From a virus, in IMG/VR virus record IMGVR_UViG_3300042890_000947, positions 1 to 64,000 of that record: 64,000 nucleotides of DNA. One strand, 5' to 3'. A model generated the notes under the pieces. It did not search any database. It was not told the origin of the DNA and worked only from the letters and a program-made list of their open reading frames with translations. How positions within the stretch are numbered: the first letter of the stretch is position 1; each line of letters begins with the position of its first letter. Of the stretch, positions 50,862 through 61,008 are shown in pieces. A program made the position numbers and the translations under genes.

Positions 50862-51089
50862 ATGATGACAAAGCAACGGAATATTCAAGTCGGTGATCTG
50901 GTTCATGTTCGTACGGAATACAAGTACGGCGCACGACACAGTGTCTCTATCAAGTCTGGAAGGGTTATTAAAAGTGAGCGACATGATCATAAAGATACTT
51001 TTCGTTTATACACTGGCAATCCTCAGTACCCCGTTTCTGTTATCGCATTTGAACGGGTCACTGGTATTAAGCTTCGCGAGGTCGCGTAA
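50862..51089 (+). CDS. hypothetical protein (SH3-like)
   Basis: IQVGDLVHV; probably leaderless after the promoter. Confidence 0.5.
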   Translation: MMTKQRNIQVGDLVHVRTEYKYGARHSVSIKSGRVIKSERHDHKDTFRLYTGNPQYPVSVIAFERVTGIKLREVA

Positions 51090-51277
51090 TGGTTAGGTCT
51101 TATGATGTAGATTTTTATGTTCTTGACAATCGTGCTGGATTCATGCTATACTGTTTTGAAGAAGATGATTGTGTCCATGAGCAGTTCTACCGCAATTCGG
51201 ATGATGCTCACTATGTTGGCCATAAGTTTCTTGATGGATGTTATGTCAAGGGTTATATTCTTGAGGATGTAGCATAA
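51089..51277 (+). CDS. hypothetical protein
   Basis: TAATG-coupled ORF. Confidence 0.5.
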   Translation: MVRSYDVDFYVLDNRAGFMLYCFEEDDCVHEQFYRNSDDAHYVGHKFLDGCYVKGYILEDVA

Positions 51278-51287
51278 ATAAAAAACT

Positions 51288-51364
51288 GGTTCCGTAGTTC
51301 AACTGGATAGAGCAGTCGCCTTCTAAGCGACGAGTTGGGGGTTCGAATCCCTCCGGAACCGCCA
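51288..51364 (+). tRNA. tRNA-Arg(TCT)
   Basis: GTCGC-CTTCTAA-GCGAC; canonical cloverleaf, CCA. Confidence 0.92.
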
Positions 51365-51365
51365 T

Positions 51366-51448
51366 GTCCCCTTGGTGTAATCGGTAGCCACGGCAGACTT
51401 AAAATCTGCTTCTTCGGAGTGCCAGTTCGAGTCTGGCAGGGGACACCA
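51366..51448 (+). tRNA. tRNA-Leu(TAA)
   Basis: GCAGA-CTTAAAA-TCTGC; V-arm; CCA. Confidence 0.9.
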
Positions 51449-51453
51449 ATCAA

Positions 51454-51529
51454 GCGCCTATAGCTCAATGGTTAGAGCTGACGGCTCATAACCGTCTGGT
51501 TCCGGGTTCGAATCCTGGTGGGCGCACCA
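51454..51529 (+). tRNA. tRNA(CAT), probably Ile2
   Basis: GACGG-CTCATAA-CCGTC; body resembles bacterial Ile2. Confidence 0.85.
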
Positions 51530-51545
51530 AATAATGAGGAAAGTA

Positions 51546-51761
51546 ATGAGAGTCCAAATGTCTGTTTTTCGTTCCGATGATATGGATCTCAAAGCTATTG
51601 TATATTACAATCCTCATAATGATCAGTATGAAATCGATTATTGTAAAAATGGATTCTTAGTAACGACCGAATCATATCAAGATCGAGGTCTTATTCATCA
51701 TGAAGATGCGGCCGAGAACTATGTATATGGAATCAAAAAGATTGAAGGTAAAATGTCCTAA
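51546..51761 (+). CDS. hypothetical protein
   Basis: GAGGA SD; EDAAENYVYGI motif. Confidence 0.55.
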   Translation: MRVQMSVFRSDDMDLKAIVYYNPHNDQYEIDYCKNGFLVTTESYQDRGLIHHEDAAENYVYGIKKIEGKMS

Positions 51762-51854
51762 ATGTAAGAAGACTTTCAAAGGAGATGATTATATCGATGC
51801 TCTTTTGAATTGTCCGTACTATACATGTGGACTGAAACAATCTACAGTGAATAA

Positions 51855-51946
51855 TGGCGTGGGTGTTGGTACACAAGAGGGCCTTATAAACCCTTTAGCA
51901 GTAGATGACTGTTCTCGACTAGGATCGAAACCTAGCACGCCAACCA
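51855..51946 (+). tRNA. atypical tRNA-Ile(TAT)-like RNA with long variable arm
   Basis: TGGCGTG/CACGCCA-A-CCA; mini D arm; CTTATAA loop; CTAGG-ATCGAAA-CCTAG. Confidence 0.7.
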
Positions 51947-51956
51947 AATTAGGAAG

Positions 51957-52163
51957 ATGAAGATGATTACGAAGATGGAAATGAATATCGGTGAGATTTT
52001 GGATCTTGCTGCTTGGCTTGAAAAGCACGGCCTAAAGCGAACACACCGAGTTGTAATCGAACAGGAATGTGGCAACGGTATTGGTACCGCGACACAGGCC
52101 AGAGTTAAGACTACTGAATCGGAAGGCATCTTTATCGATATCACCGATTATGATGTATGGTGA
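51957..52163 (+). CDS. hypothetical protein
   Basis: GNGIG...IDITDYDVW motif. Confidence 0.55.
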   Translation: MKMITKMEMNIGEILDLAAWLEKHGLKRTHRVVIEQECGNGIGTATQARVKTTESEGIFIDITDYDVW

Positions 52164-52167
52164 TGAT

Positions 52168-52347
52168 ATGAACGAATGGCTTGATAAAGGACTTTTCTGT
52201 ATTGGTTGGGTCAGCTTTATGTGGATTGCTGATTTGCTTTTGAGTAATACTGGCGTTACGAGTTATGGCGCTCTAATGATTGGTGCTCTATCTATTACAG
52301 CGGTAGGACTTATTAAACAATATCGGGCGAGTGTGGTGAAACGGTAG
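52168..52347 (+). CDS. small membrane protein; stop codon lies inside tRNA-Leu
   Basis: two hydrophobic segments. Confidence 0.45.
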   Translation: MNEWLDKGLFCIGWVSFMWIADLLLSNTGVTSYGALMIGALSITAVGLIKQYRASVVKR

Positions 52348-52408
52348 ACACAGTGGTCTCAAAATCCACCGCGTAAGCATGGGGGTTCAAGTCCCTCCAC
52401 TCGCACCA
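52327..52408 (+). tRNA. tRNA-Leu(CAA)
   Basis: GTGGT-CTCAAAA-TCCAC; CCA. Confidence 0.88.
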
Positions 52409-52427
52409 AAAATAAATTTTATAATAC

Positions 52428-52458
52428 TTGACAATCCAGATTGGATGTGATATAAATA
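52428..52458 (+). promoter_or_regulatory. composite sigma70/late promoter
   Basis: TTGACA-N17-TATAAATA. Confidence 0.7.
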
Positions 52459-52495
52459 AGAATACAAGTTAATAAGAGAATCGTTCCAACAAAAA

Positions 52496-52579
52496 ATGAA
52501 ACACCATTATTGCCCCATTGCGAATAATCAACCAAAAGGTCGTCCATCATGGGCAGGCAACGGGGGTTCTATGATTTGA
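52496..52579 (+). CDS. putative attenuator leader peptide (27 aa)
   Basis: MKHHYCPIANNQPKGRPSWAGNGGSMI between promoter and terminator; contains the antiterminator arm. Confidence 0.55.
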   Translation: MKHHYCPIANNQPKGRPSWAGNGGSMI

Positions 52580-52605
52580 GTCTTGTTACAGACTTAGATT
52601 CTTAA

Positions 52606-52637
52606 AGAACCCCGATGAGGAAACTCTCGGGGTTTTT
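52606..52637 (+). terminator. intrinsic terminator (attenuator)
   Basis: AGAACCCCGA-t-GAG-GAAA-CTC-TCGGGGTTTTT; 5' arm also complementary to 52561-52570. Confidence 0.75.
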
Positions 52638-52641
52638 AGTT

Positions 52642-52717
52642 ATGCGAAATAAACATAGCTGCCATGCAAAACAAAACATTGAAAAACAGACTTGCAGGCA
52701 TTATCTATAGTATGTGA
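52642..52717 (+). promoter_or_regulatory. 76-bp promoter element, copy 2
   Basis: ATGCG-N7-CATAGC-N3-CATGC-N11-TTGAAAA-N6-TTGC-N7-ATCTATAGTAT; same spacing as 48941-49016. Confidence 0.6.
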
Positions 52718-52739
52718 GAGATTGAGAGAAGGAGGGGCG

Positions 52740-52934
52740 ATGCTTCACTTCGTAGGGTTTAAAGGCGACGAATACCTTCGGGCTTGTCGCGTGTTTGGTT
52801 TACCAGATTTCATCCATCCGGGATGGGATCTTCGTGCTCGACGGGAGATAACTCCCGATGATACCGTTGTCTTTGCTACTGGCTCTTTTAATCAGGAGCC
52901 GCGTAGTCGATCCTTTAGTGATCTCAAAGAATAA
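52740..52934 (+). CDS. hypothetical protein
   Basis: AAGGAGG SD; HFVGFKGDEY...FGLPDFIH..WD. Confidence 0.6.
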   Translation: MLHFVGFKGDEYLRACRVFGLPDFIHPGWDLRARREITPDDTVVFATGSFNQEPRSRSFSDLKE

Positions 52935-52985
52935 CGGCTTGCTGATTTACATTGTTAAGTTCCTAGAGATAACGAAAGTTATCTC

Positions 52986-53078
52986 TTCCGAGACACACCA
53001 GACAGGACGACAGGTTGGTTCGAAACGTCTGCGTCCGATACTAGCTTATCGAACTAAACTAGCTGGTGTGTCGCGGAA
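52986..53078 (+). ncRNA. structured spacer RNA (three-way junction, complementary loops)
   Basis: TTCCG-GACACACCAG/CTGGTGTGTC-CGGAA closing stem; loops GGTTCGA and TCGAACT. Confidence 0.5.
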
Positions 53079-53092
53079 GTGATAAGTTTTAT

Positions 53093-53169
53093 TCCCTTGG
53101 AGCCGGGTTGGTACCGGCACCTGACTGTTAATCAGGCCGTTATAGGTTCGAATCCTATTAAGGGAGCCA
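53093..53169 (+). tRNA. tRNA-Asn(GTT)
   Basis: CCTGA-CTGTTAA-TCAGG; CCA. Confidence 0.88.
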
Positions 53170-53173
53170 ATAT

Positions 53174-53248
53174 GCGGGTATAGCTCAGAGGTAGAGCGTC
53201 ACGTTGCCAACGTGAATGTCGTGGGTTCGATCCCCATTTCCCGCTCCA
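53174..53248 (+). tRNA. tRNA-Gly(GCC)
   Basis: TCACG-TTGCCAA-CGTGA; CCA. Confidence 0.9.
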
Positions 53249-53252
53249 ATAC

Positions 53253-53327
53253 GCGCCAGTAGCTCAGTGGTAGAGCAGCGGTCTCTTAAACCGACGGTCA
53301 AGAGTTCAATTCTCTTCTGGCACACCA
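53253..53327 (+). tRNA. tRNA-Lys(CTT)
   Basis: GCGGT-CTCTTAA-ACCGA; CCA. Confidence 0.85.
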
Positions 53328-53333
53328 ATCCAT

Positions 53334-53407
53334 GGTCTTGTAGTGAATGGATATCACACCTCTCTGTCTAAGAGGAGTAACGAGTTTGAGCCTCGTCAAG
53401 ATCGCCA
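53334..53407 (+). tRNA. tRNA-Asp(GTC)
   Basis: CCTCT-CTGTCTA-AGAGG; atypical T-loop TTTGAGC; CCA. Confidence 0.8.
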
Positions 53408-53413
53408 ATAACA

Positions 53414-53567
53414 GCCCACCTCTTGACAATGTGGGTGCCTGACATACGGGCTTGGGGAGAGATATAAAGTATTAAGATATGAAACTCCTCCACCATTTAG
53501 TACGCCGAGCATCCTTCGGGATACGCTGGGTAGGGTTGACGGCACCCTCGCAGTACGAAAGCCGTTA
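53414..53567 (+). ncRNA. two adjacent structured spacer RNAs with possible pseudoknots
   Basis: CCCAC/GTGGG, GCCTG/CGGGC, GGGGAG/CTCCTC-CACCA; UUCG hairpin; loop TGACGGC complementary to GCCGTTA. Confidence 0.4.
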
Positions 53568-53600
53568 TTCTATTAGCGACACAGTGTAACGCTACAGTTT

Positions 53601-53625
53601 TATAAATACTCTCAAAAGGAGTATT
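53601..53625 (+). promoter_or_regulatory. late promoter overlapping an SD-sequestering hairpin
   Basis: TATAAATA; AATACTC/GAGTATT stem covers part of the AGGAG SD. Confidence 0.65.
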
Positions 53626-53627
53626 CT

Positions 53628-53948
53628 ATGAAAATCTGTAAACACTGTGGAGAAGAACACAACATGCGCGGCCTATCGTGTAGAGTTTGTAAGGACAATC
53701 TGTATAACTATAACATGAACAGAAATGATGTTCTTACTCTACATGAGAGTCAAAATGGCAAATGTGCTTTGTGTGATAAAGAAGTTAAGATGTTTAATGG
53801 TGGTAGTTACAAAAGCGGTAACGTTGACCATTGCCATAAAAATGGAACAGTAAGAGGCATACTTTGCCATCAATGTAACACTTTCGTTGGTTACATGGAA
53901 AATAAAGTTCCGTTCTATAAGTTAAAAAGTTATCTGGGTGTAGCGTAA
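53628..53948 (+). CDS. endonuclease VII-like HNH endonuclease (free-standing)
   Basis: QNGKCALC...VDHCH..GTVRGILCHQCN. Confidence 0.85.
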   Translation: MKICKHCGEEHNMRGLSCRVCKDNLYNYNMNRNDVLTLHESQNGKCALCDKEVKMFNGGSYKSGNVDHCHKNGTVRGILCHQCNTFVGYMENKVPFYKLKSYLGVA

Positions 53949-54011
53949 TCTGGTTATCGCGTCTGCTTTGGGAGCAGAAGACTGAGGGTTCAAATCCTTC
54001 CACCCAGACCA
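53934..54011 (+). tRNA. tRNA-Pro(TGG)
   Basis: TCTGC-TTTGGGA-GCAGA; CCA. Confidence 0.9.
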
Positions 54012-54085
54012 ATTTAGTAAGCCCCTAAAGGGAACGCCGGGTCACTCCCGAGCCGAAGCGAAGGAAACTTCGCCGAGTTTTAAAA

Positions 54086-54164
54086 CAGTGTGTAGGGGAG
54101 TCTGGCCGTCCCCACTACCCTTGGAAGGTAGGGATCGGTGGTTCAAATCCACCTACACTGACCA
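54086..54164 (+). tRNA. tRNA-Pro(TGG), second divergent copy (A37)
   Basis: CTACC-CTTGGAA-GGTAG; C1-G72, A73; CCA. Confidence 0.8.
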
Positions 54165-54167
54165 ATC

Positions 54168-54256
54168 GCTGGATTACTATAGAGATGGTAGGTGCACTCT
54201 GTCTCTTGTGCGTACCAGTAGAGGACAGGCTGACACCTCTATAAAAACGCGCCAGC
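54168..54256 (+). ncRNA. structured spacer RNA (three-way junction, complementary loops)
   Basis: GCTGG/CCAGC and TATAGAG/CTCTATA closing stems; loops CTGTCT and GGACAG. Confidence 0.45.
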
Positions 54257-54262
54257 AATTCT

Positions 54263-54337
54263 ATCAGTGTGGTGTAGCGGTAACATGCCGGTCTCCAAAA
54301 CCGTGCGTCTAGGGTTCAAATCCTTACACTGATGCCA
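54263..54337 (+). tRNA. tRNA-Trp(CCA)
   Basis: CGGT-CTCCAAA-ACCG; CCA. Confidence 0.85.
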
Positions 54338-54342
54338 ATAAT

Positions 54343-54417
54343 GGGGTGCTGATGATAACGGGAGCATGCCGCCCTTGCAAGGCGGACGACAGGGTTCGAT
54401 TCCCTGGCATTCCACCA
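54343..54417 (+). tRNA. tRNA-Ala(TGC)
   Basis: CCGCC-CTTGCAA-GGCGG; G3:U70; CCA. Confidence 0.85.
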
Positions 54418-54535
54418 GTTTGACTTGATTACTTACGCTTGAGACACCATCCGCTTGAGGTTGGAATAATGTTATCAAGATAAGTCGCCAAATATCAAGC
54501 ACATTCGTACCGACCGCGTGAGGTACAGCAGTTTT

Positions 54536-54621
54536 GGGTGAGCGGCAACGACGGCGAGTTGCGGCGGACTGTAAATCCCCTGTCTAGTACTTAGTTGGTT
54601 CGAATCCAACCTCACCCACCA
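54536..54621 (+). tRNA. tRNA-Tyr(GTA)
   Basis: GGA-CTGTAAA-TCC; long variable region; CCA. Confidence 0.85.
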
Positions 54622-54627
54622 AATTAT

Positions 54628-54839
54628 CCAGTATTCTAGACATGCTGGAGAGACCTCGCAAGACTATCAGAGGGGAATGCTTGCTAATATCGGATTGCTT
54701 ACCTCAATAAGCGCAATGGGCTGAACCGATAGGGTGTAAAGAATAAGAACTTGCCGAAAGGCATACGAAGCAGGCCTAGTGGTCGGTAGAAATGGCAGGG
54801 CATGAGCCCGTGCGCTCTGGGTGTAGAAATACCCGACCA
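54628..54839 (+). ncRNA. candidate structured ncRNA (~210 nt)
   Basis: multiple hairpins (TCCAG/CTGGA, ATCGG/CCGAT, TGCC-GAAA-GGCA, TGGTCGG/CCGACCA) in an ORF-free spacer. Confidence 0.4.
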
Positions 54840-54849
54840 ATTAATTTAC

Positions 54850-54924
54850 TGGCGCATAGCTCAGAGGTAGAGCACTGTCCTGATAAGACAGGGGTGGAAG
54901 GATCGTTACCTTCTGTGCCAACCA
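54850..54924 (+). tRNA. tRNA-Ile(GAT)
   Basis: CTGTC-CTGATAA-GACAG; T-loop ATCGTTA; CCA. Confidence 0.82.
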
Positions 54925-54925
54925 A

Positions 54926-55315
54926 TTACTGCTGACTTGGAGCAATGTCGTATGGAATACGCTTCTTCTTTTTCTTCGGTGGCGGTGTAGGCTTAGGCAC
55001 AGGCATTACAACAGGCTTCTGCTTTGCTGCCTTAAGTTCCTTGTTGAGTTGATTGATAACAAGTCTTTGATCCTCAACCTTTGTATTAAGATAATCAACA
55101 TCTTCCGTTAGAGTTGTGATCTGACCTTCAAGATCAGTCTTCTCTTTGATAACAACTTCAAGGTTATGTTGTGCTATTGATGCTTGTTCCTGATATTGCT
55201 TAGCCGAGGCATAATAGTTTCTGGCTTCAAATAAAAGATAGAACGTTGTGAAAACTGAAATGGCACAAAGCAAAAGTAATAACAGTGTTGGCATAGTTCT
55301 AAGTCCTTTTTTCAT
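54926..55315 (-). CDS. membrane-anchored coiled-coil protein with Pro/Lys tail
   Basis: N-terminal TM, heptad region, PVPKPTPPPKKKKKR; AGGA SD on the minus strand. Confidence 0.65.
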   Translation of the reverse strand: MKKGLRTMPTLLLLLLCAISVFTTFYLLFEARNYYASAKQYQEQASIAQHNLEVVIKEKTDLEGQITTLTEDVDYLNTKVEDQRLVINQLNKELKAAKQKPVVMPVPKPTPPPKKKKKRIPYDIAPSQQ

Positions 55316-55358
55316 AGTGCTAATCCTGTAGTAGACATTTAAAGTATATAGTTAATAT

Positions 55359-55432
55359 TGGGAGATCGTCTAAAGGTAGGACGCAGGATTTTGATTCCTG
55401 CTATCTAGGTTCGAATCCTAGTCTCCCAGCCA
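55359..55432 (+). tRNA. tRNA-Gln(TTG)
   Basis: CAGGA-TTTTGAT-TCCTG; U1-A72; CCA. Confidence 0.9.
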
Positions 55433-55435
55433 ATT

Positions 55436-55510
55436 GAACCCTTAACTCAGTGGTAGAGTAGCGGGCTTTTAATCCGTCTGTCCTGGGTTCGAATCCCAGA
55501 GGGTTCTCCA
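55436..55510 (+). tRNA. tRNA-Lys(TTT)
   Basis: GCGGG-CTTTTAA-TCCGT; CCA. Confidence 0.88.
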
Positions 55511-55515
55511 AATAT

Positions 55516-55590
55516 GGTTCCATCGACTATCGGTTAGGTCAGGTCCCTTTCAAGGATCAGAGGCGGGTTCGACTCCCGCTGGAACTACCA
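55516..55590 (+). tRNA. tRNA-Glu(TTC)
   Basis: GGTCC-CTTTCAA-GGATC; CCA. Confidence 0.9.
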
Positions 55591-55601
55591 ATCAAGGAGT
55601 T

Positions 55602-55736
55602 ATGATGTTCAAACTCACTTCATTATCTGCTATCGGAGCTAAGTCGTTGGCCAAGCAGTATGTGAGATTCGGTTACAAACTGGTCTCACAAATTTATGAC
55701 AAGAAGAAAGAGATATACATTAGTACATTTAAGTAA
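55602..55736 (+). CDS. small basic protein (44 aa)
   Basis: AAGGAG SD; MMFKLTSLSAIGAKSLAKQY. Confidence 0.5.
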   Translation: MMFKLTSLSAIGAKSLAKQYVRFGYKLVSQIYDKKKEIYISTFK

Positions 55737-55739
55737 TAA

Positions 55740-55815
55740 GGCGGATAGGACAAAGAAGGTAAGTCGTCGGTCTCATAAGCCGAAGGAGTTGGGGCAGATC
55801 CAACATCCGCAACCA
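55740..55815 (+). tRNA. tRNA-Met(CAT), initiator-like
   Basis: TCGGT-CTCATAA-GCCGA; 1:72 mismatch; atypical T-loop GGCAGAT. Confidence 0.7.
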
Positions 55816-55816
55816 A

Positions 55817-55891
55817 CCCGTTTTAGTTCAATGGTTAGAACGCATGTCTGTGGAACATGATACGGTGGTTCGATTCCACCACTCGGGACCA
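55817..55891 (+). tRNA. tRNA-His(GTG) without G-1, A73
   Basis: CATGT-CTGTGGA-ACATG; two acceptor-stem mismatches; CCA. Confidence 0.8.
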
Positions 55892-55944
55892 CTTTGTTCA
55901 TTCATTTGTACATATAGACGCTTCGCGTACAAACGAATAGACAT

Positions 55945-56018
55945 TGCCGGGTCGTCTAACGGTAGGACGCATGACTCTGACTCATGCTATCGTGGTTCGA
56001 ATCCATGCCTGGCAGCCA
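55945..56018 (+). tRNA. tRNA-Gln(CTG)
   Basis: CATGA-CTCTGAC-TCATG; CCA. Confidence 0.9.
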
Positions 56019-56034
56019 GAATAAATAAGTTAAT

Positions 56035-56110
56035 GGAGCCGTAGCAAAACGATTAATGCGCGGGACTGCAAATCCTTGAGGTATCAGTTTGAATCTGATC
56101 GGCTCCTCCA
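56035..56110 (+). tRNA. tRNA-Cys(GCA)
   Basis: GGA-CTGCAAA-TCC; U73; CCA. Confidence 0.82.
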
Positions 56111-56115
56111 ATAAT

Positions 56116-56207
56116 GCATTCGTATCCCCCTCCGCTACGAACGGAGAGAAAGGTAACTGGAAATGGTATAACAACTAATGCAGGTTCGAATCCTGTCGAA
56201 TGCTCCA
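56116..56207 (+). tRNA. D-armless tRNA-Arg(ACG)-like RNA with 33-nt variable region
   Basis: GCATTCG/CGAATGC-T-CCA; CTCCG-CTACGAA-CGGAG; GCAGG-TTCGAAT-CCTGT. Confidence 0.7.
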
Positions 56208-56223
56208 TTAAAGGAAAAAATTA

Positions 56224-56571
56224 ATGAAGCTTATTAAAACTTTAATTGCTACATCATTTTTATTTGTGGCAATGCCTTCTGCTCATGCTACCGTTGCTTC
56301 CTGGTATGATTGTGTGAAACCGGGTGAATGTAGTAAGAGCAAGATTACTGCTAACGGGGAAAGATTTAACCCCAATGCGTTGACAGCGGCGCATAAGACT
56401 CTTCCTTTCGGTACAAAAGTTCGTATTACCTATAAGGGAAGGTCAGTTGTCGTGAGAATAAATGATCGCGGCCCATTTATTAAGGGTCGTCATATTGATC
56501 TTTCCAGGGCTGCTGCTCGGAAGATTGGATGTCATGGAGTTTGTAAAGTACAAATAGCTGTGATAAAATAA
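56224..56571 (+). CDS. RlpA-like DPBB lytic transglycosylase
   Basis: signal peptide; [32 protein letters not shown]. Confidence 0.9.
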
Positions 56572-56670
56572 TATGTGTTAGAGGTTTGTGAGTGGACTGT
56601 AATTGACTGGAAACTCTCGTTAATCATAAAAGTGGAGGGCGTAACCACTATAAGAAATCGCATCGAATTT

Positions 56671-56758
56671 GGATAGATGGCCGAGCGGCTGAAGGCGCCA
56701 GTCTTGAAAACTGGAGAACAGAAATGTTTCGTGGGTTCGAATCCTACTCTATCCGCCA
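56671..56758 (+). tRNA. tRNA-Ser(TGA)
   Basis: CCAGT-CTTGAAA-ACTGG; V-arm; G73 CCA. Confidence 0.92.
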
Positions 56759-56761
56759 CTT

Positions 56762-56867
56762 TCGGGACGCAGCCAGAGTAACTGAGACAACTGGCTTAAT
56801 GAGTAACTGCTGGCAAAGCCGCTAAATGACTTTCTCAGGTCGTGCAGAGGCTCACGTACCCGATCCA
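56762..56867 (+). ncRNA. CCA-terminated structured RNA with complementary loops
   Basis: TCGGG-ACG/CGT-a-CCCGA-TCCA closing stem; loops CTGAGA and TCTCAG. Confidence 0.5.
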
Positions 56868-56884
56868 ATTAAAAGGAAAACAAT

Positions 56885-57031
56885 ATGAGTAAAGACTGTG
56901 GTTGCGGAAGAAGTCCAACTGGAAAATGTATTGGTTGGCATGGGTTGACAAACGAAGATTATTCTGCTAAACTTAAAGAATACGAAAAGAAGCAGTTAAT
57001 GGAATCTGCCCCACAACTACTAAAGGAATAA
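56885..57031 (+). CDS. CDGSH-like iron-sulfur domain mini-protein (48 aa)
   Basis: CGCGRSPTGKCIGWH (3Cys-1His); AAGGA SD. Confidence 0.65.
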   Translation: MSKDCGCGRSPTGKCIGWHGLTNEDYSAKLKEYEKKQLMESAPQLLKE

Positions 57032-57033
57032 AT

Positions 57034-57109
57034 GTGTTCTTGGTGAAGCTGGTGCTCACGTTCGCCTGAAGAGCGAAAGAACTCTGTTCGATCCAGAGAG
57101 AACACACCA
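57034..57109 (+). tRNA. tRNA-Phe(GAA)
   Basis: TTCGC-CTGAAGA-GCGAA; CCA. Confidence 0.82.
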
Positions 57110-57121
57110 AATCGCATATAT

Positions 57122-57129
57122 TATAAATA
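57122..57129 (+). promoter_or_regulatory. T4-type late promoter
   Basis: TATAAATA upstream of ORF 57188. Confidence 0.5.
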
Positions 57130-57187
57130 AGTATATACACTATGTTGTATGTTACTAATACGTAATCGTGAAAAGAGGAATACAAAA

Positions 57188-57814
57188 ATGAAGTTTATTG
57201 TTTTAATCGGCGCAGTAGCACTGGCCGCAACTACTTTCACTCCACTCGCTCATGCCAGTGCCGCTCTTGGCGGCCTTGACAAGCAATGTTATAATGCTCT
57301 TCGCAAGGAATGGTCTGGTTGTAATAAGGGATCAGGCGCAGATAATAAGAATCTTCCAGACTTTAAGTTTAATCCGAAGTCTCACGGCAAGCCAGGAAAG
57401 CCAGGCGGTAACGGTGGCAATGGTAATGGCAACGGCGGTACCGATAACGGCGGTGATGGCAACAACGGCGGTGGCGATAATGGCAACGGAGGCGACAACG
57501 GTAACGGAGGCGACAATGGAGGCGATAACGGTAACGGTGGTGATAACGGTAATGGCGGTGACAATGGCAACGGTGGCAATAATGGCGGCGATGGTGGTTG
57601 CCAAGGAGCTGGCGGCGGTAACTGCGGCATAGGAAACGGTGGCGGTGGTGGTAATGGAACCGGCAACGAAGGTAATGGCAACGGCCCTGGAGATAATAGC
57701 AATCAGCCCGACAATAACAACGGCGGTGGTAATAACTCAAACTCTCCTCAACTCAACAGCAATGACATAAAGGGTTTTGATCCTTCCACCGGTCTATACG
57801 GCCCTGGTACCTAA
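57188..57814 (+). CDS. secreted Gly/Asn/Asp-rich low-complexity protein
   Basis: signal peptide ending AHA; GGDNGN repeats. Confidence 0.65.
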   Translation: MKFIVLIGAVALAATTFTPLAHASAALGGLDKQCYNALRKEWSGCNKGSGADNKNLPDFKFNPKSHGKPGKPGGNGGNGNGNGGTDNGGDGNNGGGDNGNGGDNGNGGDNGGDNGNGGDNGNGGDNGNGGNNGGDGGCQGAGGGNCGIGNGGGGGNGTGNEGNGNGPGDNSNQPDNNNGGGNNSNSPQLNSNDIKGFDPSTGLYGPGT

Positions 57815-57823
57815 TCACACAAA

Positions 57824-57899
57824 GCGTCTTGGGAGGTGTTGGCAATCTCATCGGTCTCATAAGCCGAACAACCCAGTTCGAAACTTGGAAGACGCACCA
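57824..57899 (+). tRNA. tRNA-Met(CAT)
   Basis: GCGTCTT/AAGACGC; TCGGT-CTCATAA-GCCGA; CCA. Confidence 0.75.
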
Positions 57900-57945
57900 A
57901 ACTAAATACTTCACGGTCAATCAAGGCCAATAATGAGGTATTAAC

Positions 57946-58119
57946 ATGCTAAACACACTCGTTGTATTAGTTCTAGTCGCTGCCGTTCTCTGGGTTCTCT
58001 GGGAAATGTGGCAGAATGGTTGGGATCTTAAGAAGGGTGGCGCTGCTATCGTAGCCGCTGCTGCTGCTTGGTGGGTCTGGGTTCACGATTCAGTATCTTC
58101 ACTAATTTCTGGAATGTAA
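57946..58119 (+). CDS. small two-TM membrane protein (57 aa)
   Basis: GAGGT SD; CTAAATA upstream; Trp-rich TM segments. Confidence 0.55.
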   Translation: MLNTLVVLVLVAAVLWVLWEMWQNGWDLKKGGAAIVAAAAAWWVWVHDSVSSLISGM

Positions 58120-58135
58120 ATAAAGAACCGTCGTT

Positions 58136-58230
58136 GGCCCGTGACGGTATATAAATCCTCGGGGTGTAAGTTCCTGCCTTGACCCTTCCATAAGGAATCA
58201 CTGATCGCAGTAACCGCTAACGGGCCTCCA
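58136..58230 (+). ncRNA. CCA-terminated RNA with a tRNA-like acceptor stem
   Basis: GGCCCGT/ACGGGCC-T-CCA; interior is not a cloverleaf. Confidence 0.45.
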
Positions 58231-58238
58231 ATTTAAAT

Positions 58239-58437
58239 GCCGATTCCGACGGGAATCGGTCGAGTGCAAGGAAATGGCTGGACGCAAAGACCGGCTAACT
58301 TGGCTAGATGGTGTGGTGCCCGCGCGTGATCTACGAGAGTAGAAGACGTGTCGTTTCCGACCAAGAAAATCTAGGCTGTCGCGTTGAACAGGTATCTGGG
58401 CCGTGACTTGTGGGTGTACCCGAATCCCACCTCACCT
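58239..58437 (+). ncRNA. candidate large structured ncRNA (~200 nt)
   Basis: dense GC-rich hairpins in an ORF-free spacer (CCGATTCC/GGAATCGG, CTAGAT/ATCTAG, CTAC-GAGA-GTAG, GTGGG/CCCAC). Confidence 0.45.
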
Positions 58438-58457
58438 TATTAACTATAGGAGCATTA

Positions 58458-58955
58458 ATGCCTGGACCATTATGGGAAGCGACTAGAGACTTACACCATG
58501 CTTGTGAAGCGCATCCTGTTGGTGCTGCTATGGCAAGTGGTAGTCCACCTATGAAATGGTATGCTGACTGGCTTTCCGCTCTTTACACTATACACTGGGA
58601 AGTTGATCAACATATTCCGAAAGTCATCCATAGAACGGAAAGAGTTCAAAATGACTTGACAGCCACAAACTGTCCTGCTAATATAATACGTGCTGCTAAC
58701 AAATATACCAATTCCTTGATAACGGAAAAAGATATTGCAGGCGCTGCTTATGTTCTTACTGGAGCGCACCTGATGGGCGGCGAGATTATGCGTAGGCGTC
58801 TTGTTGGTTATCCTACTACACATCTGGAATGGGATGATCGTAAAGCTGCACTTGTGGAACTAAACAAGTTTAGAGAGCGTGAAGAGATTGCAGAGGAATC
58901 TAAAAACTGTTTTCATGCTCTTCTAAAGATTATGGACGAAATTAAGGCCGATTAG
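58458..58955 (+). CDS. heme oxygenase-like protein
   Basis: LWEATRDLHHACE proximal His; AYVLTGAHLMGG distal helix. Confidence 0.7.
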   Translation: MPGPLWEATRDLHHACEAHPVGAAMASGSPPMKWYADWLSALYTIHWEVDQHIPKVIHRTERVQNDLTATNCPANIIRAANKYTNSLITEKDIAGAAYVLTGAHLMGGEIMRRRLVGYPTTHLEWDDRKAALVELNKFREREEIAEESKNCFHALLKIMDEIKAD

Positions 58956-59021
58956 CTCAGTGGTAGTAGCGTCTCGTTTACACCGAGAATGTCGGGAGTT
59001 CGAATCTCTCATCGGCTACCA
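58946..59021 (+). tRNA. tRNA-Val(TAC)
   Basis: TCTCG-TTTACAC-CGAGA; CCA. Confidence 0.9.
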
Positions 59022-59026
59022 ATAAC

Positions 59027-59108
59027 GCGGATATGGTGAAATGGCAGACACGCTAGTCTTAGGAACTAGTGCTTCGGCGTGGGGGTTCAAGTCCCTCTAT
59101 CCGCACCA
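59027..59108 (+). tRNA. tRNA-Leu(TAG)
   Basis: CTAGT-CTTAGGA-ACTAG; V-arm; CCA. Confidence 0.92.
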
Positions 59109-59113
59109 ACTAC

Positions 59114-59187
59114 GCCTCTATAGTATAAAGGTAGTACACGGCTTTGGTAAAGCCGAGACACAGGATCGATACCTGTTAGAGGCACCA
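59114..59187 (+). tRNA. tRNA-Thr(GGT)
   Basis: CGGCT-TTGGTAA-AGCCG; T-loop ATCGATA; CCA. Confidence 0.85.
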
Positions 59188-59202
59188 TATAAATAGTTAC
59201 AT

Positions 59203-59289
59203 GCTGGCTTGGCTGAACGGCTGAAGGCAACGGTTTTGTAATCCGTCGGAGTAATCCCATTGCAGGTTCGAATCCTGTGGCCAGCACCA
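59203..59289 (+). tRNA. tRNA-Thr(TGT) with class II-type variable arm
   Basis: ACGGT-TTTGTAA-TCCGT; GGA-GTAA-TCC V-arm; CCA. Confidence 0.8.
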
Positions 59290-59308
59290 TTTTTTTAGGA
59301 ACTTAATA

Positions 59309-59803
59309 ATGATTAGAAAGCATCTCGACCTAGACGCCGTTCGTGCGTTTATTCAATCACAATCTCCAGAAACAAAGGTATATCTTGGTGGCGACTCCGA
59401 ACGCTTTCAAATCGATGGCGTGTGGTATGCTGACTACATCAATGTGGTAGTTGTTCATAAGAACGGCAAGAACGGTTGTAAGGTATTTGGTGGTATCGTG
59501 CGTGAGCGCGACTATGACCAGAACAAGGACAAGCCACGGATGCGTTTGATGAATGAAGTAATGAAGACTGCTTCGCTATATCTGGAACTATACGATGTGC
59601 TTGAGGATCGTGAAACAGAAATCCACTTGGACATTAATCCAGACATGAAGCATGGTTCTTCATGCGTTATCAACGAAGCTGTTGGCTACATTCGTGGTAT
59701 GTGTAACATCATACCTCTGGTTAAGCCAAATGCTTGGGCCGCATCTTACTGTGCGGATCGATATAAGGACGCTATTCAACACGCACATAAGGCGGTAGCA
59801 TAA
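59309..59803 (+). CDS. RNase H-like YkuK (DUF458) family protein
   Basis: YLGGDS, RLMNEV, EIHLDIN, KPNAWAASYCAD. Confidence 0.8.
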   Translation: MIRKHLDLDAVRAFIQSQSPETKVYLGGDSERFQIDGVWYADYINVVVVHKNGKNGCKVFGGIVRERDYDQNKDKPRMRLMNEVMKTASLYLELYDVLEDRETEIHLDINPDMKHGSSCVINEAVGYIRGMCNIIPLVKPNAWAASYCADRYKDAIQHAHKAVA

Positions 59804-60000
59804 TGTTTATCAAGTTAACGAATATGGTTCCTGAACGAAAAGGTGATCCTCTATACCTCAATGTAAATCATATCAAGGTGGTATATGAGGATCACGTTGA
59901 AGGAGGCAGTCTTTTGACTCAAGTCCATGCAGAGAATGTTACATGGTCTGTCGAAGAAAGTCTTGGTGAAGTAATGAAGTTGATTGGAGAAGCAGTTTAA
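59803..60000 (+). CDS. FlbD-like small protein
   Basis: MFIKLT...LYLNVNHI...VEESLGEV. Confidence 0.5.
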   Translation: MFIKLTNMVPERKGDPLYLNVNHIKVVYEDHVEGGSLLTQVHAENVTWSVEESLGEVMKLIGEAV

Positions 60001-60001
60001 A

Positions 60002-60427
60002 ATGGCAAGATTTTTCGTTATGATTTGTGTTGTTATCTTCGCAATCTTTACGTTGGTTGTCGGAGCTAAAGCGGAAGTATTCATTACGATTGATAAGTCG
60101 GATCAAACAATGTATGTTGAAACTTTGACCGATACATATGAATGGCCAATTTCTACGGGTCGAGAAGGATACAATACACCGTCTGGAGAATATCGTCCGT
60201 ATCTACTTAAGAAACTTCACTATAGCAAGAAGTATGATAATGCGCCGATGCCTTGGTCAATCTTCTTTCACGAAGGATACGCAATTCATGCGACTGGCGA
60301 AGTAGAGCGTCTTGGATCTCCAGCATCTCACGGTTGTGTTAGACTTGAACTGAGAAATGCTCGTTGGTTATATCGCCTAATAGATGAAAGTGGCAAAGAG
60401 AATACATATATACGTGTAATAGAATAA
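60002..60427 (+). CDS. L,D-transpeptidase (YkuD family)
   Basis: ISTG, TPSG, MPW, AIHAT, SHGCVRL. Confidence 0.9.
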   Translation: MARFFVMICVVIFAIFTLVVGAKAEVFITIDKSDQTMYVETLTDTYEWPISTGREGYNTPSGEYRPYLLKKLHYSKKYDNAPMPWSIFFHEGYAIHATGEVERLGSPASHGCVRLELRNARWLYRLIDESGKENTYIRVIE

Positions 60428-60428
60428 T

Positions 60429-60518
60429 GGAAGGTTGGCCGAGTGGTCTAAGGCACCTCACTGCTAACGAGACGTACCTTAATCGGTACCGAGGGTTCGA
60501 ATCCCTCACCTTCCGCCA
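60429..60518 (+). tRNA. tRNA-Ser(GCT)
   Basis: CTGCTAA loop, weak anticodon stem, GTACC/GGTAC V-arm, CCA. Confidence 0.82.
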
Positions 60519-60550
60519 TATAAATAGTGATATAATTTAGAGGAAATAAA

Positions 60551-60994
60551 ATGGAAGAATTAGTAGAAAAGATGAAGGCGGTATTAGCAAGTACCTTTGC
60601 TGCTGGACTTAAAGCTCAGTCGTATCACTGGAATGTAATTGGTTCCGATTTCCCACAACTACATGATTTCTTCGCAACTATCTATGAGGACTATCAGGGT
60701 GCAGTAGATCCACTAGCGGAACACATTCGTCAGTTGGACGCTTTTGCACCTCAGACATTGACAAGGATGAAAGAATTGTCTATAATAATGGAGGATGAGA
60801 AAATTCCTACTGCGGAAAAGATGATTGCCAATCTTCAGACCTGTAACGAGAATCTTTCTAACTTAGTTATTGAAGCGTATGAAATGGCAGAAGCACAGAA
60901 GATGTATGGTCTTTCCAACTATCTTCAGGATCGTATTACTGCTCAAATGAAACTTAACTGGATGATCAAGGCAACAATGGGCAAGAAGTCCTAA
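60551..60994 (+). CDS. dps: Dps/ferritin-like DNA protection protein
   Basis: HWNVIG, LHDFF, DPLAEHIR, WMI; late promoter TATAAATA at 60519. Confidence 0.9.
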   Translation: MEELVEKMKAVLASTFAAGLKAQSYHWNVIGSDFPQLHDFFATIYEDYQGAVDPLAEHIRQLDAFAPQTLTRMKELSIIMEDEKIPTAEKMIANLQTCNENLSNLVIEAYEMAEAQKMYGLSNYLQDRITAQMKLNWMIKATMGKKS

Positions 60995-61008
60995 AAAGGA
61001 TATTTATT

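Follow-up and report, generated by a model that had tools for sequence, protein, structure and literature searches.

Structured RNAs that are not tRNAs are a known component of phage tRNA arrays. T4 RNAC (species 1) and RNAD (species 2) are non-tRNA molecules of about 120-140 nucleotides (nt) located next to tRNA genes on the same strand, and RNAC ends in a T-arm-like hairpin; their function is given as unknown in PMC9697503. The manA, GOLLD and ROOL RNAs are also structured non-coding RNAs of tRNA arrays. According to the sections seen of PMC12990946, ROOL and GOLLD occur in tRNA arrays and self-assemble via kissing loops, and some GOLLD RNAs embed a tRNA. YrlA-type RNAs, which are Y RNA-like, contain tRNA-mimicking modules and are in some cases phage-borne (PMC4201824, in excerpt), and 8,495 candidate structured RNAs from IMG/VR are reported in a catalogue of 2023 (PMC10690425, in excerpt). 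Here we describe the spacers of a tRNA array in a stretch of 64,000 nt (the window), positions 1 to 64,000 of the IMG/VR virus record IMGVR_UViG_3300042890_000947. The source record is an 86-kb uncultured virus, about 52% complete. Six spacers, A to F, were interleaved with tRNA genes or small open reading frames (ORFs), and the RNAs in them belong to the kind described above. Judged from covariation among relatives, spacers B, C and D hold three new RNA families, and there are probably more in the region. The size of B, C and D is 50-105 nt, compared with about 190 nt for manA and 550-830 nt for ROOL and GOLLD. All three recur on the tRNA strand in related uncultured phages, again within tRNA arrays, and most of these phages were sampled from lakes or other fresh water. 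We consider it likely that the spacers are a mixed set and not one class, B, C and D being unrelated families that each have their own higher-order pairing and would be released from a tRNA precursor.

Related DNA was fetched via three nearby proteins and a fourth protein adjoining A, and further relatives were collected with degenerate patterns from conserved parts of D, C and B. The C core was also scanned once each in metagenome contigs and genome contigs. Iterated nhmmer over the loci fetched by then gave 2 distinct sequences for A, 10 for B, 20 for C, 22 for D and 3 for E, and the 3' part of F was found in 25 loci.

The initial annotation, made from one sequence, had assigned the six spacers to a single fold, a closing stem with two hairpins whose loops are complementary. 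All twelve loop motifs were located at the coordinates given for them (Table 1). The observation is real as sequence and mostly at chance level. Fold stability was expressed as a z-score against 200 shuffles per spacer: A had a z-score of −4.8 with no shuffle as stable, followed by C (−2.6; 3 shuffles), D (−2.4; 5), B (−1.8; 10), E (−1.7; 12) and F (+0.6; 145). Loop pairing was examined by enumerating exhaustively, in each spacer and in 150 dinucleotide shuffles of it, the ways to place two hairpins inside a closing stem and recording the longest loop-loop run, with G-U pairs allowed. The run of 9 bp in A was reached by none of the 150, and the runs in the other spacers were reached by 20 (B, 7 bp), 80 (C, 6 bp), 59 (D, 6 bp), 113 (E, 4 bp) and 48 (F, 7 bp). 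The shuffle counts indicate a single-sequence signal above chance in A only, so that complementarity better than in dinucleotide-shuffled spacers was found for A and not for B, C, D, E or F. Runs of at least 6 bp were present in 74, 72, 80, 59, 25 and 100 of the 150 shuffles of A, B, C, D, E and F, respectively. Loop complementarity in one sequence therefore cannot tell signal from chance, as the annotation itself had cautioned for matches of 5-6 bp. C was at chance in the shuffles and is shown to be real only through comparison with its relatives.

In unconstrained minimum free energy (MFE) folds, the motifs of A and B were not in two separate hairpin loops. When the motifs were held unpaired, A and C folded as a closing stem with hairpins. 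The constrained fold of A had −35.2 kcal/mol and a loop duplex of −9.3 (MFE −39.7), and that of C had −31.5 and −6.5 (MFE −35.4); with the loop duplex energy added, both are competitive with the MFE structures. The spacers had also been described as free of ORFs. Listed frames cross them (for example 52858-53082 and 54088-54312), and the same frames also run through tRNA genes.

For C the annotated fold was essentially right, and the relatives add two helices to it. P3 encloses a tiny P3a, in which a U-A or C-G pair closes an AAA loop, and P3b, whose loop is mostly 4 nt long. The 22-nt core was invariant across the collected set, partly by design of the patterns. A covariance model (R1) built from 11 sequences scored 107.9 bits on C, had no other match in the window and recovered 19 convincing members in 772,894 bases. 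One fold class for all six spacers is not supported by this result, nor by the relatives, which have no common fold. In the model-made alignment of the 11 sequences, 87.6% of the cells were paired versus 76.9% in shuffles, and none of 500 shuffles reached the observed value. The loop-loop helix in the same alignment was 89.4% paired, and in 3 of its 6 pairs both partners had changed. With metagenome members included, the partner classes were GAGA/TCTC, TAGG/CCTA, TGGG/CCCA, GTGG/CCAC, TGAC/GTCA and CTAAG/CTTAG. A complement of the member's own P3b loop was present upstream of the core in 26 of 26 distinct members outside one group (L193 type), compared with 27 of 130 non-cognate cases. The annotated CTGAGA/TCTCAG pairing thus covaries. 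A loose pattern for C matched 100 distinct stretches in the fetched DNA, 81 of which were chance matches; a strict pattern gave 53 distinct stretches in the pooled scans, 9 of which were judged by eye to be chance matches in coding-like DNA. By these comparisons C is a widespread family of RNAs with several helices, held together by a pseudoknot of 4-6 bp between two loops of the same molecule.

The surroundings of C differ among its members. In the window and closer relatives, C is followed by a ribosome-binding site and a small ORF; in others a tRNA comes next. Free-standing members have no recognisable feature at this place, and in their gene neighbourhood only small unnamed ORFs with no common theme were seen. 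In L209 and L286 the C core occupies the position of the anticodon loop in a cloverleaf that also has an acceptor, a D-like arm and a T arm, and a similar cloverleaf was recognised by eye in L320 and L345. The pseudoknot partner of these cloverleaf members is located in the linker 3' of the D-like arm, and ARAGORN called none of them. Members of the L193 type have a nested GGGA-loop hairpin in P2, often as two copies per contig.

B folds in another way than annotated. CTGTCT, which had been placed in a loop, is the 3' strand of the covarying stem Pa, and its supposed partner GGACAG was present in 2 of 11 aligned rows; the closing stem with two hairpins and complementary loops thus stands for A and C when the motifs are kept unpaired, and fails for B. 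In relatives of B, GCTGG pairs with CCAG, followed by a conserved internal loop, Pa and an apical loop of 9-10 nt. Pa ends in Y-G-G/C-U-R with G-U pairs and occurs with the covariants AGAGA/TCTCT, AGAAA/TTTCT, TCGT/ACGA, GGAG/CTCC, TCGA/TCGA and TCTT/AAGA. Because of the G-U pairs, the stem fits an RNA of the + strand only. The family set comprises 22 distinct members kept from at least 93 distinct pattern matches, the other 71 being left out as unrelated for want of the stem and of the 3' junction conserved in the family. Among the matches listed, to which the counts for B in this paragraph and the next refer, the 13 members with 10-nt loops had 100% of cells paired, both-side changes in 5 of 8 Pa pairs and covariation at all three pairs of palindrome positions (3/3). 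The stem of domain 2 was read by eye as AGTGG/CCACT or CGAG/CTCG in relatives.

A 6-nt palindrome was present in the apical loop of 22/22 distinct B members. Six types were seen (CCATGG 6, TCTAGA 5, CCTAGG 4, GTGCAC 4, CTGCAG 2, CCGCGG 1), and palindromes occurred in 1280 of 20000 composition-matched shuffled B loops. The alignments describe B as a long irregular hairpin whose apical loop of 9-10 nt always holds a self-complementary 6-nt sequence. Since the hexamer cannot fold on itself, the simplest reading is that two copies of B pair, and the palindromes point to kissing between molecules, which fits the remark in the initial annotation on oligomerising RNAs. Tandem copies of B carry different palindromes, GTGCAC and CTGCAG in L012 and GTGCAC and CCATGG in L013 and L075; such differences would keep the tandem RNAs from cross-pairing. 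The closest described likeness is the dimerization initiation site (DIS) of HIV-1, which also has a six-nt palindrome in an apical loop. The B loop of the window holds GUGCAC, a DIS hexamer that has conserved flanking purines in HIV-1 according to the part seen of PMC7357161. Unlike DIS, B has mostly pyrimidine flanks and belongs to a small phage RNA instead of a viral genome, and the B dimer is proposed from sequence.

In D, all 22 distinct members keep GGCCCGT...ACGGGCC followed by N and CCA, as well as the junction GGTATA-N-AAGTC. The first hairpin is variable, often with a UUCG or GUAU loop, and the second arm ends in a 7-nt loop, N-TCCA-W-N. The pair annotated for D, TCGGGG/CCTTGA, falls in variable parts of the RNA, and CCTTGA was found only in 3 of the 22 rows, those near-identical to the window. 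Two other helices are conserved. In S1, the six bases ACCGNN before a 3-nt spacer pair with the six bases NNCGGT after GGCCCGT. Among 20 members with upstream sequence, S1 had six contiguous pairs in 16 and five in 1, and 3 needed a loop longer by one base; it was 91.7% paired with two covarying pairs (C-G, U-A, U-G, G-C). S2 was 100% paired with two compensatory variants. The covariation score in this count of S1 and S2 was reached by none of 500 shuffles. The combination of a 7-bp acceptor stem, discriminator and CCA was specific to D (22/22 rows), not being kept in C and being absent from A and B.

S1 and S2 are interleaved, which makes either an H-type pseudoknot or two alternative states. 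Pseudoknots are subject to a loop-length rule, and by this reasoning S1 and S2 could feasibly form together and stack into one 13-bp helix with N-CCA at its end, since S1a and S2a are separated by 3 nt and S2a directly adjoins S1b. The conserved pairings describe D as a three-way junction whose 7-bp acceptor-like helix can stack on the 6-bp hairpin stem. As that helix is stackable on S1 and ends in N-CCA, D would be a mimic of the upper half of a tRNA; a search of its structure for an anticodon arm identified none. In plant-virus tRNA-like structures of the tymovirus type (RF00233), the acceptor-like helix is likewise built by a pseudoknot and ends in N-CCA. D differs from them in that the long pseudoknot loop is the whole body of the RNA and in being a DNA phage gene in a tRNA array, and RF00233 had no match on D at E≤10.

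Spacer A probably holds a fourth RNA of this kind, with variants too few for covariation. Its versions were the window form, a one-base variant (2 distinct by nhmmer) and L302, which has compensatory changes in the closing stem around an identical interior of 63 nt. The loop motifs can form 9 bp, and the kissing fold is plausible as a model. The A slot of two other loci (L301:3246-3355 and L303:3320-3415) holds different RNAs with a closing stem of 13-15 bp and a multi-hairpin interior. They end in a T-arm-like hairpin (ACGG TTCGATT CCGT and ACGG TTCAAAT CCGT, respectively), and ARAGORN made no tRNA call on them. A resemblance had suggested a Y RNA identity for A; it was dropped as there was no model match and no TROVE protein.

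The pairs annotated as weaker cases in E and F were at chance level in the shuffle test and are chance matches. E had 3 near-identical versions only. In F, GAGGG is changed to GAGGC in many relatives and CTCTC shows no compensation. The complementarity said to be kept each time is thus kept in the homologs of C, where it covaries, and the partners in B, D and F are not conserved. The 3' element of F was present in 25 loci and persists where a different gene lies upstream of it. Its loop base 56639 (G/C) matched base 56661 (C/G), about 20 nt apart, in 20/20 distinct sequences, which suggests that the 3' hairpin forms a 3-bp pseudoknot before tRNA-Ser.

Table 1. Coordinates of spacer RNAs, annotated loop motifs and neighbouring RNA features in the window.
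Feature	Position	Strand	Elements	Basis
RNA B domain 1	54168-54219	+	P1 54168-54172/54215-54218; internal loop 54173-54179 and 54207-54214	
RNA B stem Pa	54181-54188/54199-54206	+	G-U pair invariant in 13 aligned rows	
RNA B apical loop	54189-54198	+	10 nt; palindrome GTGCAC 54192-54197	alignment
RNA B domain 2	54219-54256	+	hairpin TAGAGG 54219-54224/CCTCTA 54236-54241, variable loop, then conserved ATAAAAACGCG	alignment by eye
RNA C	56762-56863	+	P1 56762-56766/56859-56863; P2 56771-56776/56791-56796, 14-nt loop	
RNA C core	56805-56826	+	invariant; P3 56807-56810/56844-56847; P3a 56811-56814/56818-56821	
RNA C P3b and pseudoknot		+	P3b 56827-56830/56839-56842; pseudoknot 56782-56787 with 56833-56838	model and alignment
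RNA D S1	58127-58132/58143-58148	+	loop holds GGCCCGT 58136-58142	covariation
RNA D S2 (acceptor-like)	58136-58142/58220-58226	+	GGCCCGT with ACGGGCC; then T and CCA 58227-58230	covariation
RNA D interior		+	junction 58149-58157; inner helix 58170-58177/58207-58214; loop TTCCATA 58186-58192; GCTA 58216-58219	by eye and constrained folds
RNA A	52986-53078	+	15-bp closing stem: 52986-52990 and 52992-53001 with 53063-53072 and 53074-53078	
RNA A hairpins		+	1: 53005-53009/53032-53036; 2: 53041-53044/53059-53062	constrained fold
Spacer E	53414-53495	+	three local MFE hairpins; TCTTGA/TTAAGA pair needs G-U	
Spacer F	56574-56662	+	no stable global fold	
F 3' hairpin	56632-56635/56645-56648	+	GTGG-AGGGCGTAA-CCAC; loop GCG 56639-56641, CGC 56659-56661	just 5' of tRNA-Ser(TGA)
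A motifs		+	GGTTCGA/TCGAACT within TTGGTTCGA 53015-53023 and TCGAACTAA 53049-53057	sequence check
B motifs		+	CTGTCT 54199-54204; GGACAG 54223-54228	sequence check
C motifs		+	CTGAGA 56782-56787; TCTCAG 56833-56838	sequence check
D motifs		+	TCGGGG 58159-58164; CCTTGA 58177-58182	sequence check
E motifs		+	TCTTGA 53421-53426; TTAAGA 53472-53477	sequence check
F motifs		+	CTCTC 56614-56618; GAGGG 56635-56639	sequence check
Conserved small RNA	53497-53568	+	closing stem AGTACGC/GCAGTAC; two hairpins	9 distinct versions
tRNA-like gene	56115-56208	+		missed by ARAGORN and the Rfam tRNA model
manA RNA (RF01745)	58242-58438	+	directly 3' of RNA D	58.1 bits, gathering 55.2

The spacers were compared with known RNAs and phages. 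A scan of 51000-61000 with Rfam at E≤10 found no family on A-F except for a sub-threshold sX4 match (21.1 bits versus a gathering score of 70) that spans tRNA-Ser and the first 26 nt of C. The tRNA model (RF00005) had no match on A-F in this 10-kb scan, nor on short stretches of A, D and a D member of 75 nt, which were scanned separately; the short-stretch scans of A, D and the 75-nt member at E≤10 gave only noise, with no match to tRNA or any other family. ARAGORN made no tRNA call on A-F, and the manA, GOLLD and ROOL models had no match on them, the one sequence that fits manA being the RNA next to D. The view that the spacers hold compact, conserved, structured non-tRNA RNAs of no Rfam family agrees with their conservation in relatives and with these negative scans. 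YrlA RNAs and the spacer RNAs are alike in placing tRNA-mimicking modules in small RNAs. The YrlA model (RF02553) matched only true tRNAs of the region (23.3 and 19.5 bits versus a gathering score of 69) and not A, and no TROVE/Ro protein was found in the 86-kb record, an absence that is weak because the record is about 52% complete. When the region, D and C were searched by blastn against 50,697 phage records, a tRNA match in an Agrobacterium phage and a match of 33 nt in a cyanophage ORF were found, and none for C. No description of B, C or D was found by full-text searches of the literature; the catalogue in PMC10690425, of which a part was available, may list them under a number.

A homology link to T4 RNAC and RNAD, two species cited in the initial annotation, was tested by profile searches, and none was found. 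The only match of the D profile in 5 kb of T4 was in rnaD (E=0.41, one way), and an rnaD profile from 5 phages had no match in 22 D sequences at E≤10. The B and C profiles found nothing in rnaC or rnaD; C had a single weak match (E=8.6) elsewhere in T4 DNA. Homology of D with T4 rnaD had been prompted by short strings common by eye; with the failure of the reciprocal search it was set aside and is a lead only. Unlike D, T4 rnaD has no 5' strand for an acceptor-like helix.

The virus is a large tailed phage according to PHROG matches to a family-B-type DNA polymerase, a DnaB-like helicase, a baseplate wedge protein and virion proteins, and several lake-water or freshwater metagenome runs contain the DNA of the window nearly whole. 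ARAGORN found 29 tRNA genes in the window, all on the + strand, 28 of which are within 51.2-60.5 kb. A gathering scan of the whole window with Rfam gave tRNAs and one manA only; these included an additional weak tRNA with a CAT anticodon at 55740-55812 (+ strand, 35.5 bits) that ARAGORN did not call. B starts 4 nt 3' of tRNA-Pro and ends 7 nt 5' of tRNA-Trp, C starts 4 nt 3' of tRNA-Ser, and A ends 15 nt 5' of tRNA-Asn. No terminator-like sites were found on the + strand across 52400-58500 and no sigma-70-like promoters inside the spacers, phage-specific promoter types being outside that scan; an explanation of the spacers as promoters or terminators was dropped for this reason. Contigs from RNA libraries, belonging to relatives, extend over D at 58009-58234 and 58018-58399, over E at 53319-53501, over the tRNA-like gene at 56119-56264 and over the manA region at 58250-58420; some bins had no cover.

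Several other features of the array were recorded. The tRNA-like gene has an acceptor stem GCATTCG/CGAATGC followed by T and CCA, a T-arm GCAGG TTCGAAT CCTGT, a 5-bp hairpin with the 7-nt loop CTACGAA (anticodon ACG) and a GNRA-capped extra hairpin after GGA. TCC after position 9 apparently pairs with the GGA that follows the D-loop-like AAAGGTAACT. Compensatory changes were seen among its 10 distinct relatives in four places: the acceptor, the anticodon-like stem, the extra hairpin and the TCC/GGA pair. The closing stem of the conserved small RNA 3' of E has the compensatory variants AGTGCGC/GCAGCAC and AGCACAC/GGTAGTGC, and its loop ACGGC can pair with GCCGT just 3' of the closing stem; one variant lineage has two of these pairs changed on both sides and a third broken. 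Other ORF-poor spacers on the + strand are 54622-54849 (relatives in 8 loci), 54418-54535 (4 loci) and 54012-54085. The ORF 3' of the manA RNA (58458-58955) has no PHROG match. Strings like TATAAATA recur in spacers of the array (52452, 57127, 58150, 59192, 60521 and others), as noted by eye; to the eye they resemble the late-promoter box of T4-type phages.

If B, C and D are a mixed set of this kind, the spacer RNAs would be made as part of the tRNA precursor transcript and set free as RNase P and 3' trimming mature the tRNAs on either side, by analogy with T4 RNAC and RNAD. RNase P recognises the acceptor/T stack. D may be recognised through its acceptor mimic. B would pair with a second copy of itself. 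Our best guess is that the released RNAs bind factors of host or phage whose normal targets are tRNA ends or bodies. As speculation, enzymes that recognise tRNA 3' ends could use the acceptor mimic of D as a substrate or be trapped by it, the loop of B could give dimers, and the invariant core and pseudoknot of C are as expected of a binding pocket or a small catalytic RNA. Several points weigh against this interpretation. Eight distinct C members, those of the L193 group, have no clear pseudoknot partner, and CCA after C is not conserved, as TCCA, TCTA, TTCA and TTTC all occur. S1 and S2 of D may be alternative and not simultaneous, and a cut by RNase P at the acceptor-like helix would split S1. 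The B palindromes are flanked mostly by pyrimidines (5' TT, TGT, TAG, ACG, TCG, TCA or TTT; 3' T, once C), and dimer formation is proposed from the palindromes themselves. The B and C sets were collected by patterns that fix parts of the sequence, by which the conservation of those parts is inflated and that of the tested loops is not, and the compensatory changes in C and D stem from few lineages. The RNA-library contigs come from relatives only and give neither ends nor amounts, and DNA carry-over is possible.

Four other explanations were considered. That the spacers are cis-acting signals of a polycistronic transcript, such as RNase III or RNase E sites, translation control or processing guides, is unlikely, though it has more in its favour than the remaining three. 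RNase III prefers long duplexes, and the 15-bp stem of A is of the type it cuts; the ribosome-binding site and small ORF after C in the window and closer relatives, and the F hairpin at a fixed distance from tRNA-Ser, would also be explained. Against such signals are the C members that precede a tRNA or stand free in a cloverleaf, the tandem copies of B between tRNAs, and D, which ends in N-CCA and is followed by the manA RNA and not by an ORF. The tRNA-sized spacers could instead be decaying tRNA genes, relics in former tRNA slots with no function of their own, as the 7-bp acceptor-like stem and N-CCA of D, the cloverleaf members of C, the T-arm beside the closing stem of the RNAs in the A slot of L301 and L303, and the odd tRNA-like gene in the neighbourhood might suggest. 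This is quite improbable, as helices foreign to tRNA covary, invariant cores are kept across distant contigs, and neither ARAGORN nor the tRNA model, even on short stretches at E≤10, recognised them. An origin of the spacer RNAs from tRNA genes is possible; a lack of function is unlikely.

We give very little weight to the remaining two. The palindromes of B, all six hexamers being perfect DNA palindromes, might act in DNA as sites of dimeric proteins or like restriction sites. They lie, however, in the loop of a covarying stem with an invariant G-U pair (13 rows) and an adjoining C-G/U-G pair, and the G-U and U-G pairs would be mismatches on the other strand and in a DNA cruciform; moreover, the hexamer can vary provided that its self-complementarity is preserved. 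Equally hard to credit is the one class of the initial annotation, in which closing stem, two hairpins and an intramolecular kissing loop persist despite unrelated sequences. A and C fold in this way with the motifs unpaired, the pairing in C covaries, and the 9-bp run of A was not reached in 150 shuffles. Against it, runs of at least 6 bp arose in 25-100 of 150 shuffles, the C model matched only C, the motif of B is a stem strand whose partner is in 2/11 rows, the partner in D is in 3/22 rows, and the change in F is uncompensated, by which the single class is largely refuted for B, D and F. The annotation was right for one spacer, C, captured the spirit of the region and was wrong in giving all spacers a single fold.

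That small RNAs can lie between the tRNA genes of phages has been known since T4. To these the window adds three families backed by covariation, with features that can be tested: the loop-loop pseudoknot of C, the acceptor-end pseudoknot of D with its CCA and the self-complementary loop of B. The dozens of natural variants in each family are ready-made compensatory mutants. The study also gives a caution, in that 5-6 bp of loop complementarity, read in a single sequence, does not exceed chance. Self-associating RNAs of tRNA arrays, so far exemplified by the very large ROOL and GOLLD, may also include hairpins of about 50 nt. Beyond the mixed set of families preferred here, a bolder and rather doubtful proposal is that phages keep a toolkit of modular small RNAs that exploit tRNA processing and act by programmed RNA-RNA pairing. 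B would be self-dimerising, with the palindrome setting its partner; D would engage or soak up enzymes of tRNA 3' ends or defence nucleases through its acceptor mimic; and C would be a pseudoknotted aptamer or small ribozyme able to replace the anticodon arm of a tRNA. If true, the toolkit would give phages a new level at which to control the tRNA machinery of the host, or would serve as counter-defence.

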